Program-made: the position numbers and the translations under genes
IMG/VR virus record: IMGVR_UViG_2531839666_000027
Source of the DNA: a virus
Taxonomy: Duplodnaviria > Heunggongvirae > Uroviricota > Caudoviricetes
Strand: one strand, 5' to 3'
DNA length: 24,381 nt
In this document: in pieces, positions 2,619 to 21,495 of the stretch
Layout: every line of letters begins with the position of its first letter
Numbering within the stretch: position 1 is the first letter of the stretch
Notes under the pieces: model-generated
Seen by the model: only the letters and a program-made list of their open reading frames with translations
Database searches by the model: none
What the model was told of the DNA's origin: nothing

Positions 2619-3209
2619 ATGTCTCGAATTTTTGCTTACTGTCGGATATCAACGCTGGATCAGACCATCGAAAATCAACGCCGGGAAATCGAAAGTGCAG
2701 GTTTTAAAATCAAACCTCAGCAAATAATCGAAGAACACATTAGCGGCTCAGCAGCAACCAGTGAGCGTCCTGGTTTTAACCGGTTGCTTGCTCGCCTGAA
2801 ATGTGGTGATCAATTGATTGTGACAAAACTGGATCGCCTTGGTTGTAATGCAATGGATATCAGGAAAACAGTGGAACAACTGACCGAAACAGGTATCAGA
2901 GTGCATTGCTTAGCATTGGGGGGCATTGACCTGACCAGTCCAACAGGAAAAATGATGATGCACGTAATTTCAGCAGTCGCTGAATTTGAACGAGACCTTT
3001 TACTTGAACGCACTCATTCCGGGATAGTAAGAGCCCGCGGCGCAGGGAAACGTTTTGGTCGACCACCTGTGTTAAATGAAGAACAGAAACAGGTGGTATT
3101 CGAACGAATTAAGTCAGGTGTAAGTATAAGTGCCATTGCCCGGGAATTCAAAACCTCGCGGCAAACCATTTTAAGAGCCAAAGCAAAACTTCAGACACCT
3201 GACATATAA
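2619..3209 (+). CDS. pinQ: serine recombinase, DNA invertase Pin family
   Basis: 196-aa ORF; N-terminal catalytic region YCRISTLDQ (serine nucleophile) and C-terminal HTH; matches recollection of PinQ/PinR. Confidence 0.9.
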
Positions 3210-3881: not shown

Positions 3882-6691
3882 TATGCAAGCCTCACAATAT
3901 AGTTAAATGCGATGTTTTTGACGGTGTTTTCCGCGTTACCAGCAGCGTTAACGGTGATGGTGTGTCCATGTGAACCAATCGCAACGGAGTGCGTATGAGC
4001 ACCAATACCGACAGTATGCGCGTGTGCACCTGCAGATGCTGCTGTGCCGGACAGTGAATGGCTATGATTACCATCTGTACTGGTATTCGCTAACCACCCC
4101 GTAAACATACCTACTGAGCCTTGTACACCCCAGGTATTTTGACCTGAGCTTGTATAACCATATTGATAAGTATCTTTAAAAACACTGGGGTTAAATCGAC
4201 GGCCATCTCTATGGCTGTGATTACCAGCTGCATTCGTGCTGCCACTTAAACTATGGGTATGCGCACCAGTGTTATTCGTGGATTTAGTGCCGTAATCAAA
4301 CGACGATGTGGTTTTCGTCCCCAAATCCGTACTGGATGCGCTGGCGCTGTGGGTATGCGATTTAATGCCGTCCTGTTCCTGAGACAATACGGCCCGACCA
4401 CTGGCAGGTTTGCCCTTAATCGTCCAGCCACGCATATCAGGGATCACGCCTGACGGATAAGCGGCTGCAAGTTTCGGGTATGCAGATTTGTCAAAAGTCT
4501 GCCCCTGCATCAGGGCATAGCCAGACGGAACGGTATCTGATGGCCACGGGATTGGTGCGCCAGGCGGATAAAACTGCTCTGATGGCGTATAGAGTGAATA
4601 AACTGTACCGTCCGTTAACCCTTCCGGCTTATTAGCAGAATATGCTGGTGACGTATGAATCGTCACGCTGGCATTACTGGTATAATCCCATTGAATATTT
4701 ACACCAGTCGCATAATTTCCGATTGCAACGTAAATATCGTAAGTATCACCAGATGTATTGACCCAGGCAAAATTTGTAAACCCTGTCGATGTGCGCTGCC
4801 ATAAAGCACCAGTAATCCCCTTCGGATTACCATTACCTGCACGTAAAACAAGTTCAGATATACCTGCCTGTTGAGGTGACCCCACGTTAAATCCAGCGCC
4901 ACCAATCAACGTAATTGAAACAACAGAACTCGCCTGTGGCATGGTTACCGTTGCTAATTTGAACCAACCAGCACCACCGCTGAATGACATTGTTGTTGAG
5001 TTAAGCGTACCAATATCTTTCGGCGTCAGTGTTATATCCGCTGAAAGCGCCTTACCATTCACCTTACGGGCAGAAGGTACCCGACCATTCGCATTGTCAT
5101 TAGCTGCTTTCACTGCTTTCGGTGTCGCAGCAAGCGTTTCAGATGTGCTGTTGGTTGCACTACTGAGCTGGACAATTCCTTTTTGTGCTGTCGTAGCGTC
5201 CTGTGCGGTGTATTTCCCGTTAGCCAGGTCATACGCGGCCTTAACGGCTTTTGGCGTTGCCGCCTGTGACTCGGAAGTGCTGTTAGTCGCACTGCTGAGC
5301 TGAACTATCCCTTTCTGTGCTGTCGTTGCATCCTGTGCGGTGTATTTCCCGTTAGCCAGGTCATACGCGGCCTTAACGGCTTTTGGCGTTGCCGCCTGTG
5401 ACTCGGAAGTGCTGTTGGTCGCACTGCTGAGCTGTACTATCCCCTTTTTCGTCGTGCTCGCATCCTCAAGCGCCACGGCGGATGCAATATCCTCTGCCCG
5501 TTTTGCTGCTGTCTCGGCGCGCGTTGCCGCGGATTCCGCCGTACTTTTGCTCTGTGCTGCCGCTGCCGCACTGCCAGCAGCCTCTGTCGCCTTCGTGGAT
5601 GCCGTCGTGGCGCTGCCCCTCGCTGCTGACGCCTGTCTGGTCGCCTCATCTTTTGAAGCAGACGCAGATGATGCCGATGACGCCGCCGAACTGGCGGACG
5701 ATGCGGCAGCCGTTTTTGAGGATTCTGCGCTGGTTTCCGACGCTTTCGCGTTCGTTTCGGATGTCTTCGCTGCGGAAGCAGACCTCGCTGCTGCGCTGGC
5801 CTGTTCAGTGGCTTCGCCAGCCTTCGTTGTGGCTGTTGAAGCGGATGATGCGGCGCTTTCTGCCGATTTTCCGGCGGCGGTGGCACTGACTGCTGCCTCC
5901 TCTGCCTTAATGGACGCCTCACGGGCCGATGATGCAGCTGCTGTCTCAGAGTCTGCCGCAGCTGAGGCGCTCTGTTCCGCTGCCGTTTCAGAAGACCTGG
6001 CATTCGTCTCGGACGTTTTTGCCGCCTTCACGGAATTTCCTGCCGCCGTTGCCGAGGAGGCTGCACTGCTGGCGCTTGTGGAGGCGTTCGTTTCTGATGA
6101 TTTTGCCGCCTCTTTGGAGGCCGCCGCATCTCTGGCTGAAGTGGCGGCTTCTGACGCTTTCGTCGTCGCAGTGGATGCAGAAGTGGCTGCTGATTTTTGT
6201 GACGCTGCAGCATTCGTTTCTGACGTTTTCGCCGCACCGGCACTGGTGGCCGCCGCGCTTTTTGAGGACTCTGCAGCGGCAGCACTTTTTGATGCTTCAG
6301 TGGCCTTTGTTGATGCCGTTCCTGCGCTGGAAGACGCCTCCTGAGCCGAAGTCGCGGCCTGTCCGGCTGACGTGCTGGCTGCACGCGCTGAGCCTGCAGC
6401 ATCAGTCGCATGGGTTGCCGCCTCACGGGCAGATGTGCCGGCATCACTGGCTGACTTCTTCGCGGCTGCCGTGTTCTGTGCCACCGCGGACGCGTTACGC
6501 GCCACCTCTTCCACCATCAGTTCAAAACGGCGCAGAGCCTCCGGACGGGCATCATCCTCCGTCATGGCACCGAGAAAATCATTCAGCGTACCGGGTCGGG
6601 AATCTTCATACACGGTGATGGTCCCGGCATGTGACGGCGGGAATCCTTCCACCAACAGAATAACGCTGTACTGACCGTACTCAACGTCCAT
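3881..6691 (-). CDS. stfQ: side tail fibre protein Stf, 5'-truncated by the IS (lacks about 50 N-terminal codons relative to lambda Stf); open frame continues to the IS boundary at 6699
   Basis: 936-aa ORF; Ala/Ser/Thr-rich rod, repeated [14 protein letters not shown] modules, C-terminal His-rich domain ...[38 protein letters not shown] as in lambda Stf. The frame upstream of the first ATG stays open (..[11 protein letters not shown]) until the IS end. Confidence 0.85.
5080..5460. repeat. about 2.8 copies of a near-perfect 132-bp tandem direct repeat inside stf (44-aa module [44 protein letters not shown])
   Basis: Directly visible: cctgtgcggtgtatttcccgttagccaggtcatacgcggccttaacggcttttggcgttgccgcctgtgactcggaagtgctgtt recurs at about 5201 and 5333 with 1-2 mismatches, plus a partial copy below 5200. 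Confidence 0.8.
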
Positions 6692-6707: not shown

Positions 6708-9021
<2,314 letters not shown>

Positions 9022-9034
9022 CCTGAACCAGGAA

Positions 9035-10543
9035 TTATTCTTCGGACTGGTCGTCGGTGTGCTGCGGCTCCTGTCGTTTCGTTGCGGCACTACTGCCTCC
9101 TTTATCACTGGCCGGATCGGTATCAAATACCAGATCCAGATTGCGGTTTTCATCAATTTCGGCCTTGCGCCGACGTTTGACATCATCCGGATTACGACCA
9201 CCAGCACGTACCCAGTCTGATTCTGTCGCCGCTCCACCACGAATCTGGATTTTCCAGGCCTCAGCCTCCTTAACAGGGTCAATCCACGGCATCACTGGTC
9301 CGGAATACACCGCGGTATACAGTGAAGAACGGTCAAGATCGCGGGGTAGCCTGATAACACCGGATGCCACAGCCTGTTTCAGCCATGCACGATACATCGG
9401 GCGGGTGACGGCACCAATAAACCAGTCCTGCAGGATCAGGTAGCCATCAGTGGATTCAACCAGCTCCTGACGCTGGGCGCTGTAAGTGCCGTTATAGTTG
9501 CGCGCTGTACTGGAAAAACTCAGACGACTGCCCGCCGCCACGGCACGCAACTGACCATTACGAAAAGTTTCAAGGTTAGGATTGGGGCGATCCGACTTCA
9601 CCATTCCGATTTCTTCGCCGGGTTTCAGATCGTCGTAAATAATGCCCGGCTGAATGGTAAGCTCACGTTCATTCTCCTTTCTGCCATTACCATCCGGTTC
9701 ATAGCTCTGCCCGTCGCCTTTCCGGATGTACATCCCCAGAGCAGCGGCGATCCTTGCTGCAGTCAGCTCAGAATCTTCATATTCTTTCAGGGCACTGAGG
9801 CGGATCAGCACACCGGACAACAAAGACGTCCCGCGCATCTGGTGCAGACGGCGAACAAATTTAAGATGCAGCATTCGCTCTGCATCCACTTCTTTGGTTT
9901 CCATCTGCCGTCCGGATACGGGACGGCTTTTATACACCAGATATTTTTCGGGACGCCCCCAGTCATCAACAAACACGCCCTGATTCAGCCTGTTGCTCTC
10001 ATCACTGGTCATGGGAATAAAGTCCGGCTCGAGCGCCTCCAGCCAGAAATGAACACCGGCAGAAGGCGCCAGGCTGTTTATGCGCCCGGAAACCATCTGG
10101 GCAAACACCTCACCATCGCGCAGCCAGGTACGAAGCATCAGACGTTCCAGCATCGGACGGGTAAACTGCCCGGTGACTTCCGGGCTGACAGACCATTCAC
10201 TCCATCGGGTGCGAATCTCCGCAGCCAGGTCACGGGCAATGGCCCCATTGCGTAATACCGGATGTGGCTCGACAATAATCCCGTTTTTCCCCACCACCCG
10301 TTCTTCCAGCTTGTCAAATACACCAATAACCAGATCGTGGTTGTTATCAAGGTAACGGGCCTGCTCACGTAACGACACGGCCCCGTACTGGCTTAACTGG
10401 TCGGCAGTTCGGTTCTCCCGTCGGGCTTTGTGTGTCCGCGTCGTTTTTACGGCCTCATAAGCCTGGATCACCGCACGGGAACGCAGCCTTGCCGCTTTCC
10501 ATCCTGGTGAAAAAACGCCAATCACATCATCAAGAATTGCCAT
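9035..10543 (-). CDS. portal protein (lambda gpB family)
   Basis: Long ORF in the portal position between the W-like gene and the protease; likely start MAILDDVIGV... at ATG 10543..10541, overlapping the W stop (ATGA); ORF-track start is 10615. Confidence 0.85.
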   Translation of the reverse strand: MAILDDVIGVFSPGWKAARLRSRAVIQAYEAVKTTRTHKARRENRTADQLSQYGAVSLREQARYLDNNHDLVIGVFDKLEERVVGKNGIIVEPHPVLRNGAIARDLAAEIRTRWSEWSVSPEVTGQFTRPMLERLMLRTWLRDGEVFAQMVSGRINSLAPSAGVHFWLEALEPDFIPMTSDESNRLNQGVFVDDWGRPEKYLVYKSRPVSGRQMETKEVDAERMLHLKFVRRLHQMRGTSLLSGVLIRLSALKEYEDSELTAARIAAALGMYIRKGDGQSYEPDGNGRKENERELTIQPGIIYDDLKPGEEIGMVKSDRPNPNLETFRNGQLRAVAAGSRLSFSSTARNYNGTYSAQRQELVESTDGYLILQDWFIGAVTRPMYRAWLKQAVASGVIRLPRDLDRSSLYTAVYSGPVMPWIDPVKEAEAWKIQIRGGAATESDWVRAGGRNPDDVKRRRKAEIDENRNLDLVFDTDPASDKGGSSAATKRQEPQHTDDQSEE

Positions 10544-10755
10544 CAGAACCTCGCCAGCCGGTACCCGGGATGCCCCCGTCGTCGTGTAATCAGAGCCGCA
10601 AGGCGGCGCTCCCACTCCTGCCGTCCCTGCCGGATCTCAGATAAGTTTTCCATGGTCATCTGCTGACCATTAAAGGTGACGGATTTTCCGTCCAGCACCG
10701 CCATTTCAGCTTCCGTATAACGCTGAATCATGGCTTCGATATCATTCTGGTTCAT
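10543..10755 (-). CDS. head-tail joining / head completion protein (lambda gpW-like)
   Basis: About 70-aa ORF between terminase and portal; C-terminus ...RRRGHPGYRLARF resembles lambda W; ATG 10755 is preceded by GGAGG and overlaps the terminase stop. Confidence 0.7.
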   Translation of the reverse strand: MNQNDIEAMIQRYTEAEMAVLDGKSVTFNGQQMTMENLSEIRQGRQEWERRLAALITRRRGHPGYRLARF

Positions 10756-12725
10756 AACCATCCTCCGGAAGTCAGCCAGGGGTTAACATCGTCAGTTACT
10801 GTTTTCTTCCGTTTTTGTTTTTTAACAGGCGTGGATACCGGTTCCGGTGAGGATGACGGTTCGGTACTGTCCTGGACACACTCCAGCCAGGTCTCCCGGC
10901 TCGCCCACTCCGGTGCATCCGGCCAGCGGATCTTTTCGTATCCATGCAGAATGACCAGAGCCTCGGCATACACCATCAGGTCAAAAGCTTCGTTGGCACC
11001 GCGACCCGGCTTACTCCATTTCCCGTCACTGCTCCGCTCTTCATACGTCAGTTCGTCGTAAAACCAGCTCCCCAGCCAGTCAGGGAAATGCACATAGCCT
11101 GGACCTGGCGAGTCACGCCATAACGCGTTATTCACCCGGTCTTTCAGGGCATCCGTCTGAAGAAGCCAGAGCGGCACATCACCTGCGGCCTGCGCCCGGC
11201 GGCCCGTTCGTCCGGTGTTATCAGGGAATGTACGGCTGATCAGTTTTGCGCGCCGGATGCTGTCACCCTTAAACAGGTAAATACGTTTACCAAGGCCATC
11301 ACGACGGCAACGACGCCAGAATTTATAGGCATTATCAGTGACCCCGTCTTCACCGCCGGAGTCCACCGCCATTGCCATCAGTCGCATTTGTTGAGAAGGA
11401 TCGGAGGCCAGCGGCCAGCTTTTATGAAAAACATCCGTCAGCAGGACATCCCAGTCTTCCGGATAGCTGGCCGGATCAATTCGCTGGCTCTCCCCGTCGC
11501 AGTCACTGCGCAATGACTGCGTGATGTTGTAACGATCAATAATCCAGCGTTCGCCACGACTGCCATAGCCCGTTACCTGAACCACAAAACGGCGATGACG
11601 TCCCGCCTGCACATCCACTGTCGCCACAAGGAAATTAACGCCATCCGGCACACTGCGGGAAGGAACTGGCTCTGCCCGCTGCTCAAGCAGTTCACTTTTT
11701 CGTTGCTCCATGCTGGCACGAGGAAGATAAGGCAATCCCCAGTCGGTGTTGATAACCGCCCTGAGTGTTTCTTCGCTTCCTGTCGCTTCATACTCCTGTT
11801 CTGCAGTCAGTAATTTGTAAACCAGTTGCGCCCAGGTCTGATACGCAGCAGCTGGCCCTTCCATCCAGAAACTGGCGATACGGGAGCGGCGCGGTTCACC
11901 GGAAACGTTGCCGTTACGATCAATGACCTGACCTTCACGCAACCAGACTCCTGCACTATTGAGCTCACGCTTTTTCTCCGCAGTGATAATGCCGCTGCAG
12001 TGCGGGCAAAGTAGATACGCCGCCTCACTGGCTTTAAAGGGATCCGGTTCATTACGGTAGCCGGTCATGGCATCCATGGCTGGCTGAAAATATTCACCGC
12101 AGTGCGGACATGACCAGTACCAGCGGCGGCGGTCACCACGATTGTAAAGGGAAAGAATACCAGTCGTCGGTGGCGCTTCATGAGGCGACTTACGTCGCCA
12201 TTTGCTGTCGCAGATGTCACGTCCCGGCGAGCTCTCCACCAGAGTCATCCCGGCGGACATAAATGTGGTGGTACGTTTTGAGGCCAGGGAGAAACCATCA
12301 CCCTCGCTGTCGATATTCTCCGGAAAACGGTCGTAATCGGTTAAGGCGACAAACCGGTAATCCGACGACGACATAATGTTGACCGAGGGCCAACCAATTT
12401 TAAGGAACGAGCCATCCCTGAACGTCTTATCATGGACATTATTGTCGTTACGACGTGGACTCATTCTTTTCTTTACCGCCGCACTGCTTCTGAACGTTCT
12501 GTCGAGGCGCTTTTTAGAATGCTCGCGGGCCTTATCTTCGGTCATCTGCACAACGAGCATGTCCGAAGGATCGCAAACGATGGTATAGACAATCCATCCA
12601 TCGATCAGACCAATGGTCTTCCCTGTTCGCGCAGGACCAACAAAAATCACCGCATCGTATTCACGCGATGCCAGGCAGTTCATGGGCTCAATGATGTAGG
12701 GTGTCAGTTCAGGATCCCATGGCAC
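10752..12725 (-). CDS. terminase large subunit (lambda gpA family); the intact frame starts at a GTG, while the probable true N-terminus (ATG 12850 with AGGAGG) is in another frame
   Basis: 657-aa ORF with ...WYWSCPHCGEYF... zinc-ribbon-like motif typical of gpA terminases. The upstream 49-codon frame MGFSSARNLGRDISAGFSPPRRMPISEAVKKF... starts at an RBS abutting the small-terminase stop and would join this frame if the A6 run at 12758-12763 were A7. Confidence 0.85.
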   Translation of the reverse strand: MPWDPELTPYIIEPMNCLASREYDAVIFVGPARTGKTIGLIDGWIVYTIVCDPSDMLVVQMTEDKAREHSKKRLDRTFRSSAAVKKRMSPRRNDNNVHDKTFRDGSFLKIGWPSVNIMSSSDYRFVALTDYDRFPENIDSEGDGFSLASKRTTTFMSAGMTLVESSPGRDICDSKWRRKSPHEAPPTTGILSLYNRGDRRRWYWSCPHCGEYFQPAMDAMTGYRNEPDPFKASEAAYLLCPHCSGIITAEKKRELNSAGVWLREGQVIDRNGNVSGEPRRSRIASFWMEGPAAAYQTWAQLVYKLLTAEQEYEATGSEETLRAVINTDWGLPYLPRASMEQRKSELLEQRAEPVPSRSVPDGVNFLVATVDVQAGRHRRFVVQVTGYGSRGERWIIDRYNITQSLRSDCDGESQRIDPASYPEDWDVLLTDVFHKSWPLASDPSQQMRLMAMAVDSGGEDGVTDNAYKFWRRCRRDGLGKRIYLFKGDSIRRAKLISRTFPDNTGRTGRRAQAAGDVPLWLLQTDALKDRVNNALWRDSPGPGYVHFPDWLGSWFYDELTYEERSSDGKWSKPGRGANEAFDLMVYAEALVILHGYEKIRWPDAPEWASRETWLECVQDSTEPSSSPEPVSTPVKKQKRKKTVTDDVNPWLTSGGWL

Positions 12726-12858
12726 CGAGTTACCAGCCCCTTGGGAACACGCATGAATTTTTTAACAGCCTCCGAAATCGGCATGCGACGTGGTGGGGAA
12801 AATCCTGCCGATATGTCCCTTCCCAAATTTCGGGCTGATGAAAAACCCATTATTCCTC

Positions 12859-13386
12859 CTAGAGACTCTCTCCTTCCTCATCAGGAATTAATTCAGCAGC
12901 ACAAGCCTCGTAGGATTTTTCCTGAAGAGTGTATCGCAGGTCATCAATGGCCTGCTGTACAACGCCGACGGCCTGAGGAGTCAGGGCGCAATCGCGTTCA
13001 AGAACATCCGGAATTGTCTCCAGAACCTGGACGACAGCCTTTCTCATGGACGAATAGACGATGACTACTTCATCAACGGGGATGAGTTTTCGCTGCTCCT
13101 TTTCCAGCTTGATCCTTTCATTTTCAGATTGGTACCAGTCCTTTCTCTCTTTCGGCTCCATACGGGATGGATCATGAACAGAGTCTGCTGCCTCATGCTT
13201 CACACTAAACAGGGCTGGCCCGACATGCTGCAGGGCGTAAACGGGGTTCCCCCTGATAGTCGCAGCCACAGGAGTGTTGGCCGCGAGGAGCCGTTTTTTT
13301 ACTGTGTCCCGGTGAAGCCCAAAGGCCTCAGCGATTTTAAAAACACTCCAGTAATAAGCATCACCGATCCCGCTCACATTTGACAT
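12859..13386 (-). CDS. terminase small subunit (Nu1-like, HTH DNA-binding)
   Basis: ORF 12859..13416; preferred start ATG 13386 (MSNVSGIGDAYYWSV...) has GGAG 8 nt upstream; sits immediately upstream of the large terminase and downstream of the cos-like site. Confidence 0.75.
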   Translation of the reverse strand: MSNVSGIGDAYYWSVFKIAEAFGLHRDTVKKRLLAANTPVAATIRGNPVYALQHVGPALFSVKHEAADSVHDPSRMEPKERKDWYQSENERIKLEKEQRKLIPVDEVVIVYSSMRKAVVQVLETIPDVLERDCALTPQAVGVVQQAIDDLRYTLQEKSYEACAAELIPDEEGESL

Positions 13387-13564
13387 AAGCAACTCCATCT
13401 GGCAGGTGAAAATCATGTTTATTTATATATTTCAATTAATTGCAAACTGGTCTAATGACAGGGAGAAAAAAATATTGTACAGGTGAAAAGAGAAATAACT
13501 TTTAATTATCAATAAATTACCAAACATGCTGCCGCCGCCATGGAAATGCAAAAACTAGCCTTTT

Positions 13565-15371: not shown

Positions 15372-15527
15372 TCAACTCAAGAGCCTTATTGCTGCTTCCA
15401 GAATTTCTTCTGAAGTAACATGTCGATCCGCGGCTACATAAATGACTTTATGATCTCCGGTCAGAGATGGAAACCCTGCGGCCATTACAGTAAGGTGTGT
15501 TTTTTCGCCATTTGGATATTCACGCAT
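15372..15527 (-). CDS. ynfN: small prophage protein YnfN-like (51 aa)
   Basis: ORF-track 15372..15563; internal ATG 15527 (MREYPNGEKTHLTVMAAGF...) matches my recollection of YnfN. Confidence 0.55.
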   Translation of the reverse strand: MREYPNGEKTHLTVMAAGFPSLTGDHKVIYVAADRHVTSEEILEAAIRLLS

Positions 15528-15640
15528 GATGGTGTTAACTCCAGTCATCGCTGGCACTACCACTGCTGGTTCAGAGTTAAAAAAACTATGATTTTTTCAT
15601 GATGTTACCGTAGTATGTGAGTATCCATCGAATAGATACC

Positions 15641-16446: not shown

Positions 16447-17469
<1,023 letters not shown>

Positions 17470-17473
<4 letters not shown>

Positions 17474-19644: not shown

Positions 19645-20394
19645 TTATCTCGTCACCTTCCTCAATTGCGCTTCCGCGTATGCTTCTTCCTGCCAGCACT
19701 TTGTTACCAGTTTACCAATGACGTCCGCATACCCCTTATACCACTGATAATCGGTCAGGTCTGGTACCAGCTTCTGGACATGACGTCGTGCCAGCGTGGT
19801 CGGTAAACGACTAAACCGGTTTCCATTACAACGCCCACAAATCTTATATACCGGTACGCCATGAAACCGGTTCTTTTTCATCCAGAACAATCCCTTTACC
19901 CTTACACCCTCTGCACGCTGTGCTGACTTCGCCCTTACCATGGCAATGCTGACATAGTTCCTTCACCCATTCTTCCTTGATTACAGATTCCCCGCGTCTG
20001 TAGTGTTTCACCACTTCGCGCAATACATTATAAAATCCCGTACCTGAACAATGCTCACAGCGAGCCTTACTTGCCGCAGACCTGGAGTAATCAGCAAAGG
20101 CAAAATTCACGAGGTAAGGAATAATCTGTAACCGGATTTCTTCACTCAATTTGTTCAATGTCGGGTTATCCAGTGCCATCGCGTAATTTAGCAGGCCTTC
20201 AATCGCAAACTGAGCGTCCTGAACACCAACTTTTGCCAGAAATAAGGCCAACCCAAGTGGTGCTTTCGACTGCACCATCCCCTGCGCTGCCATTACATCC
20301 GTAATTGTTAAACAACCGGTGCCTGTCGCTGGAGCGTCATCGCTCAATTTTGGAGATTTTGGGGAGTAATATTTTGGTAAGGCTTCAAGGTTCA
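19645..20394 (-). pseudogene. quuQ: late antiterminator Q, split by a frameshift at an A5 run (19874-19878)
   Basis: Starts MNLEALPKYYSPKSPKL... at ATG 20394; frame 1 ends ...CRGCKGKGIVLDEKEPVSWRTGI*, frame 2 continues ...NRFHGVPVYKICGRCNGNRFSR...QLRKVTR*. An A4 run would give one continuous Q protein of about 250 aa with Cys-rich zinc-binding motifs. Confidence 0.65.
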
Positions 20395-20407
20395 TGCTCG
20401 TTCTCCA

Positions 20408-21495
20408 CTTACGCCAGTACGCCAATTGCCAGCGCGCGATCGATAAAACGAATATCAGCTCCAGTTGGGAGCCATACTTCTCTTCAAATGCCACTGTATC
20501 CGTATGCAGCTCGTTGTGATGCTTTCTGCACAAAGGCAACACAAAGAGATCATGTGCTTTTGTTCCCATTCCGCCCTGCCCGTGACCAATCAGATGATGC
20601 GGATCGTCGGCTGGCATACCGCAGCAAGCACACGGCTGTGTCTTAACCCAACGTGTGTATTTCTCCTTAACCCAGCGGCGACGTTTAGGCAGCTTCATGA
20701 AAGATTCCGGAGACTCTGGATCAACGGTGATGCTTACCACCGTCTTTTCCTGTGGTGTTTTTGTTGCTGGTGGGCGTAAGGCAACGGTGCAAGATTTTTT
20801 GTGCGTTGTTTCAATATGCTGGTGGCGGTCTGCTCTCCCGGTACGATGTCGCTTTCGCGGTACACCGAGCAGATTTTTTCCGCTGGTAATCCCAGCGAAC
20901 GACGCGATACAGCCTCAGGTAGTGCATCCACCACCTGATTGCAGACCGCCCACCAGGATAATTCAGCCAAAGATAATTCCCGCTCCTGCGTACCGCTTAT
21001 TGCGTGACGGATGACGTCAATCACCCATGCTGTCAGATTTTGTTGAGCAAGCAGCTCCAGTGATTCCGATGTCTGGTCACGCAGTTGGTTGTCGCAGTGC
21101 CAACACAACACCATTGCGCCGGTACCATAACGGTGAATGACTGTTTCAGAGTGATGGTAATCGCCATTAGGCCACTGGCAGGATGTAACATGACGTAATA
21201 GCCAGTCAGACAATGCGCCAACACCGCCAGCAGCACGAATCACCCGTTCGTTACTAAAAAACGGCAGCAATGTTTTGTCTTCCGCCAGCGACTGGCGAAC
21301 GGCAGGAACGACTCCGGATGGCAGATTACGCATGCTTTTTGGTTCCGGTTCCACCAGCACTCGAGGATTATGAAATATCTGTATGGATTCACGGCCCGGC
21401 TTAAGGACCACCAGCCCAAGCTCAGGCACCAGAACAGGTCTAAGTAATACCCGCACGTTACCTCCAGATCCGTTGCTGGAAAGTGCGGGACGCAC
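20408..21495 (-). pseudogene. ydfU: DUF968-family protein with C-terminal HNH-like motif (YdfU-like), carrying at least two frameshifts
   Basis: Three frames carry consecutive pieces: ...ILKQRTKNLAPLPY..., then ...TPQEKTVVSITVDPESPESF...CACCGMPADDPHHLIGHGQGG...CRKHHNELH...ELIF, then RFIDRALAIGVLA* (TAA 20410..20408). As sequenced, the reading frame runs straight into Q. Confidence 0.55.

Follow-up and report, generated by a model that had tools for sequence, protein, structure and literature searches.

Has the large terminase gene (terL) of this phage DNA truly lost its N-terminus, or was the loss introduced when the DNA was sequenced or assembled? The question arises from a broken reading frame on the minus strand of the 24,381-nt stretch that we analyzed as a whole (hereafter the window; IMG/VR virus record IMGVR_UViG_2531839666_000027). 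Upstream of the break, the small terminase gene terS (12859..13386, minus strand) is intact, encoding a DUF1441-family protein (Pfam, E = 4.6e-44) with 0 amino acid differences from the 176-aa WP_001595800.1 of the E. coli genome L005, and it ends with a TAG stop at 12861..12859. For the start of terS, the ORF listing extends to an ATG at 13416 (185 aa), and RefSeq relatives begin the 176-aa protein at window position 13386. The terL ribosome-binding site, AGGAGG (12860..12855, minus strand), precedes an ATG at 12850..12848 (minus strand) that is also the start annotated in cdtI, HannyBb, and the RefSeq relatives. From this ATG, a 49-codon frame (stop included) encodes 48 aa, reads MGFSSARNLGRDISAGFSPPRRMPISEAVKKFMRVPKGLVTRCHGILN, and ends with TGA at 12706..12704. 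Compared with the intact protein, this 5′ fragment (12704..12850, minus strand) consists of 38 native codons (M1-G38) followed by 10 out-of-frame codons (LVTRCHGILN) and the TGA. The long frame opens past a TAA at 12764..12762 (minus strand), and its first start codon is a GTG at 12725, equivalent to V43 of the intact protein, from which 657 codons run to 10752 (10752..12725, minus strand; ORF listing and Pfam). The 3′ ORF holds the Walker A motif and both the GpA_ATPase and GpA_nuclease domains. An earlier note on this DNA had described the same arrangement, with a ribosome-binding site and ATG opening a 49-codon frame beside the small-terminase stop and a long gpA frame devoid of ATG and offering only the GTG. 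Direct reading and translation bore out this description, including every coordinate given for the ATG, TAA, GTG, and A6 run.

When repaired as described below, TerL matches GpA_ATPase (PF05876; residues 40-303, E = 4.2e-80) and GpA_nuclease (PF20454; residues 325-643, E = 1.8e-86) in Pfam, in the domain order of the lambda gpA family. Its Walker A motif, GPARTGKT, occupies residues 72-79, of which G77, K78, and T79 are invariant in a 7-sequence alignment. The gene context is likewise as expected of this family, with the small-subunit gene upstream and the head-tail adaptor (10543-10755) and portal (9035-10543) genes downstream. Judged from its sequence, terL is a lambda gpA-family member by descent that is interrupted as sequenced; rather than running through the N-terminal extension as one unbroken ORF, it is split after codon 38. 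A tblastn search with TerL residues 1-120 retrieved 365 phage records, 359 of them covering at least 80% of the query, and alignments began at residues 1-5 in phages of Salmonella, Klebsiella, Providencia, and Aeromonas as well as in those of Vibrio, Rhodobacter, Synechococcus, and Paenibacillus. Moreover, an alignment of seven annotated N-termini revealed a conserved segment upstream of the break (F.PP.R..vSEA…y..v) and an invariant P44-W45 directly after the GTG codon V43. Since the N-terminus is conserved in distant gpA-family terminases, we regard it as part of TerL. The earlier note was thus right to assign the ~42 N-terminal residues to the gpA-family protein, as the upstream frame shows conservation and homologues begin elsewhere than at the counterpart of the GTG. 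In Tritos (OV696610.1, 733-2832), terL is annotated from an internal ATG at 799 (M23); in cdtI, HannyBb, and the RefSeq prophages, the annotated start is the upstream ATG (733, M1 in Tritos numbering), and the conserved N-terminal segment supports M1.

By analogy with lambda, the N-terminal extension probably contacts the small subunit. Frackman et al. in 1985 and Wu, Christiansen and Feiss in 1988 are said to have found that the N-terminus of lambda gpA binds the C-terminus of gpNu1, with mapping to 48 residues. The present locus shares with lambda gpA/gpNu1 the GpA_ATPase plus GpA_nuclease architecture, a terS gene immediately upstream, and an N-terminal extension before the ATPase domain, whereas its small subunit is a DUF1441 protein and, by Pfam, not a gpNu1 homologue. 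We searched the literature for a direct report of gpNu1 binding by the N-terminus of lambda gpA and found only an indirect statement (PMC9611059). According to this source, TerL of lambda is bound by the C-terminus of TerS, and the P22 site for TerS maps to the first 23 residues of TerL (PMC9611059).

On translation alone, the two terL frames are joined by a single added base at any position from 12761 to 12707. The earlier note had placed the missing base in the A6 run (12758..12763, minus strand), but this run has its wild-type length: Tritos, cdtI, and HannyBb carry it unchanged, as do 121 of 121 contigs. We therefore rejected a repair of A6 to A7, which contradicts every intact relative and yields the peptide …KKIHACSQGAGNS… with six non-native residues where the true sequence is …KKFMRVPKGAGNS…. 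The actual lesion lies ~20 nt downstream, at 12737..12740 (minus strand; a C-run on the plus strand), where a phage alignment and a 4-way alignment both place a G4 run in the window and a G5 run in relatives. Intact relatives read AAG GGG GCT (K37-G38-A39) at this site and the window is one G short, the sole difference at the junction in the alignment with Tritos, cdtI, and HannyBb being CCCAAGGGGGCTGG in the phages versus CCCAAGGGGCTGG in the window. Insertion of one G at 12737-12740 gives a 699-aa TerL with 0 differences from WP_000507036.1, the TerL annotated in the closest E. coli genomes. The earlier claim of a single-base frameshift that splits terL and detaches ~42 N-terminal residues thus held, but its site is the G5 run and not the A6 run. 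Hand repair at the nearest eye-catching homopolymer can choose the wrong site, and here intact relatives alone located the lesion. On the evidence of its domains and this match, terL is an ordinary 699-aa lambda gpA-family large terminase with nothing novel about it, all but identical to the cdtI, HannyBb, and Tritos genes and to hundreds of copies in E. coli prophages.

The G4 allele is almost absent elsewhere. Tritos, cdtI, and HannyBb are 99.6-99.8% identical to the window over the terS-terL junction, matching 702 nt against a 701-nt query (megablast, phage genomes). The cdtI (YP_001272515.1), HannyBb, and Tritos genes and the one encoding WP_000507036.1 have the ribosome-binding site, ATG, and upstream DUF1441 terS of the window, but carry G5 at codons 37-39 where the window carries G4 and its ORF is split. 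An 81-nt query centered on the run had matches in 755 complete E. coli genomes and was found exactly in ET791 only; the other 754 showed one difference each, and among the matches listed 29 of 29 span 82 nt, that is, G5. A pattern search permitting either allele found G5 together with A6 in all 121 matching contigs (120 viral, one MAG). No further G4 carriers were found among species-representative genomes, where the single match was a G5 in a MAG contig. An exact 42-nt match to terL was located at 5679-5720 of JAGZPX010000007.1, a 22.9-kb contig from a MAG labelled Veillonella parvula that is probably a mis-binned enterobacterial phage contig.

This distribution bears on the idea of functional recoding or phase variation, in which a -1 ribosomal frameshift or transcriptional slippage on A6 or G4 would restore TerL. 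A -1 shift anywhere in 12761-12707 joins the frames, this interval includes an AAA AAA Lys-Lys pair, and tRNA-Lys is slippage-prone on A-runs. We nevertheless consider recoding very improbable: the two-frame arrangement is not conserved, relatives having one continuous ORF (754 of 755 genomes, 82 nt among the matches listed; 121 of 121 contigs), and the zero frame of the overlap, which reads GTT AAA AAA TTC (T AAA AAA) and later CCC AAG GGG CTG, holds no canonical X XXY YYZ heptamer. A programmed frameshift was rejected on these two grounds. Furthermore, a shift on the A-run would put six non-native residues into the conserved segment, and the prophage has no use for a terminase anyway. Still harder to credit is a scheme in which G4 is genuine and low-level -1 slippage on AAA AAA or the G-run yields full-length or near-full-length TerL, the homopolymer acting as an on/off switch; if true, the cryptic prophage would retain its terminase, for example, to package or mobilize other elements.

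The one other G4 carrier, ET791 (NZ_CP100906.1, 5530-14327), has a truncated terL and is ~97% identical to the lineage of L005 and the window; despite the shared G4, it was rejected as the origin of the window and is no close relative at this locus. Six genes of its Qin-type locus are annotated as "frameshifted," and it has homopolymer deletions of its own, including T6 to T5, T7 to T6, and G5 to G4 twice; its consensus, too, may be of low quality. Because ET791 belongs to a different, ~97% identical lineage, G4 is judged from these sequences to have two independent origins, each in an assembly with many deletions of this kind. Its presence in another frameshift-rich assembly fits a recurrent technical error. 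Conversely, two independent occurrences could mark a genuine slippage hotspot, and the further decay of the homologous locus in ET791 also speaks for a genuine mutation.

We next turn to the window as a whole, in which private changes were scored against three 99.9%-identical genomes (L005, L006, and L007) and tallied by run length. Private to the window were 15 deletion events (23 nt) and 2 substitutions (4104 and 14690), with no insertions, and none of the 15 deletions was shared by any of these three nearest relatives, which differ among themselves by ~8 substitutions and 2 indels. Six deletions shortened T6 to T5 (window 2317, 7609, 18414, 19597, ~19872, and 20757), and others shortened A6 to A5 (3207), A8 to A7 (15578), T7 to T6 (15591), C5 to C4 at the terminase site (12736), CC to C (17443), GGG to GG (19870), and AAA to AA (20450). 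The remaining two were multi-base G/C dropouts in an IS3 element, at 7036 (7 nt, CCCGGGG) and 7065 (3 nt, GGG). Shortening affected 9 of 44 runs of at least 6 nt (20%; one of them, a T8 run, is shortened in L005 too), 1 of 106 five-base runs, and 7 of 17,612 runs of 4 nt or less (0.04%), and runs of at least 5 nt differed from shorter ones with a Fisher p of 2.5e-17. When the annotation of the relatives was transferred, 7 of 30 CDS were broken, namely, pinQ, the IS3 transposase, terL, ynfN, rrrQ, ydfT, and ydfU, and the remaining 23 had 0-1 amino acid changes. Private homopolymer deletions account for the breaks in pinQ (2619-3208), ynfN (15372-15600), rrrQ (16941-17473), ydfT (Q antiterminator, 19645-20395), and ydfU (20409-21456), all five of which are intact in the three closest genomes.

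On this evidence, the missing G is most probably a homopolymer under-call from sequencing or assembly rather than a biological change. The G5 run spanning codons 37-39 would have lost one G, in line with 14 further private deletions in 24 kb, leaving an ATG frame that ends after 48 aa and another 657 codons with an internal GTG only. An artefact is likelier because there are only deletions, dependent on run length and unshared with relatives, and almost no substitutions alongside them, a recognized mark of homopolymer under-calling in error-prone assemblies. The differences are overwhelmingly homopolymer deletions whose frequency rises with run length, and the G4 variant itself is absent from close relatives, ET791 being the only other carrier found. 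We infer the technical origin; the position of the deletion, its near-absence elsewhere, and the window-wide deletion bias are direct observations.

Deletion errors of long-read assemblies have been strongly tied to homopolymers of 2-8 nt, hitting mostly A/T runs and about half as many G/C runs, and they pseudogenize genes (PMC12007338). The window resembles such false pseudogenes of the long-read or pyrosequencing type in having deletions only, run-length dependence, mostly A/T and some G/C runs, and many fragmented genes against a near-identical background, but the loss of several G/C bases at once at two sites of the IS3 element is atypical of them. Indeed, these 7-nt and 3-nt deletions are not simple one-base under-calls and count against an artefact, although they may have arisen as G/C runs were lost in assembly. 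A comparison with 1,755 places in 886 E. coli genomes found no copy that was at least 99% identical to the IS3 version of window 6985-7115. Also unfavorable to an artefact is that only 1 of 106 five-base runs was shortened, so that G5/C5 is no strong hotspot in the window, and that real frameshifts are to be expected in a cryptic prophage under relaxed selection.

Four complete E. coli genomes, among them the three aligned above, match the window over its full length at 99.9% identity, across 24,404-24,406 nt versus the window's own 24,381, and the RefSeq annotation of these relatives reveals a Qin-type cryptic lambdoid prophage inserted at ydfJ. The gene order in the relatives begins with a ydfJ remnant, ynfT, ydfK, pinQ, tfaQ, and a tail fiber gene, continues with an IS3-family element in the ClpP/capsid gene, portal, head-tail adaptor, an intact 699-aa terL, and the DUF1441 terS, and ends with lysis and cold-shock genes, ydfT (Q), ydfU, rem, and hokD. 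With the Qin prophage of E. coli K-12, the window shares the insertion site, the ydfJ remnant, ynfT, ydfK, pinQ, tfaQ, cspI, and cspB, as well as rzpQ, rrrQ, ydfR, ydfT, ydfU, rem, and hokD; unlike Qin of K-12, the version seen here still has terS, terL, portal, and part of the head protease/capsid gene. In the closest relatives, there are no tail genes between the head genes and the tail fiber. Because the IS3-family element (6708..7874, minus strand; coordinates transferred from the RefSeq annotation of relatives) truncates the ClpP/major-capsid fusion gene, the prophage is unable to make virions even with an intact terL.

Such a background lends some plausibility to the reading in which the change from G5 to G4 is genuine replication slippage and terL a true pseudogene in a decaying cryptic prophage, which would yield no more than a 48-aa N-terminal peptide and, perhaps, a protein truncated at its N-terminus. 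Even the closest relatives carry a defective prophage, with IS3 in ClpP/capsid and the gap in tail genes described above, so that terL is under relaxed selection. Even so, we hold this reading to be unlikely. The missing G is the only nucleotide difference in terL from L005-L007, and after repair the protein shows 0 amino acid differences; thus the substitutions and further lesions of neutral decay were not seen within the gene. In addition, 15 private deletions against 2 substitutions and 0 insertions are unlike natural divergence between E. coli relatives, in which substitutions dominate, and the three nearest relatives have none of the 15. A mismatch-repair mutator would hardly explain this tally either, since in such strains base substitutions outnumber indels and insertions occur too. 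The biological loss of the TerL N-terminus implied by the earlier note is accordingly displaced by the likelier assembly error, the deletion being 1 of 15 private, homopolymer-biased ones.

If the under-call is accepted, the value of this locus lies mainly in quality control, with nothing new biologically: the assembly would carry ~1 homopolymer deletion per 1.6 kb here, and its calls of frameshifts, pseudogenes, or lost termini warrant distrust. Were G4 real, terL would be an unremarkable pseudogene in a prophage already inactivated by IS3.

The reference relatives themselves show a few homopolymer differences. At window 15137, in the gnsB region, the window and L005 have T7 and L006 and L007 have T8, and gnsB is annotated as shorter in L005; in L006, the ydfJ remnant contains one additional G (column 856) and is annotated as "frameshifted." Finally, the annotated programmed -1 frameshift of the IS3-family transposase uses an A AAA AAG slippery site, and the T6-to-T5 deletion at window ~7609 (minus strand) falls precisely within it, where the window reads A5G.
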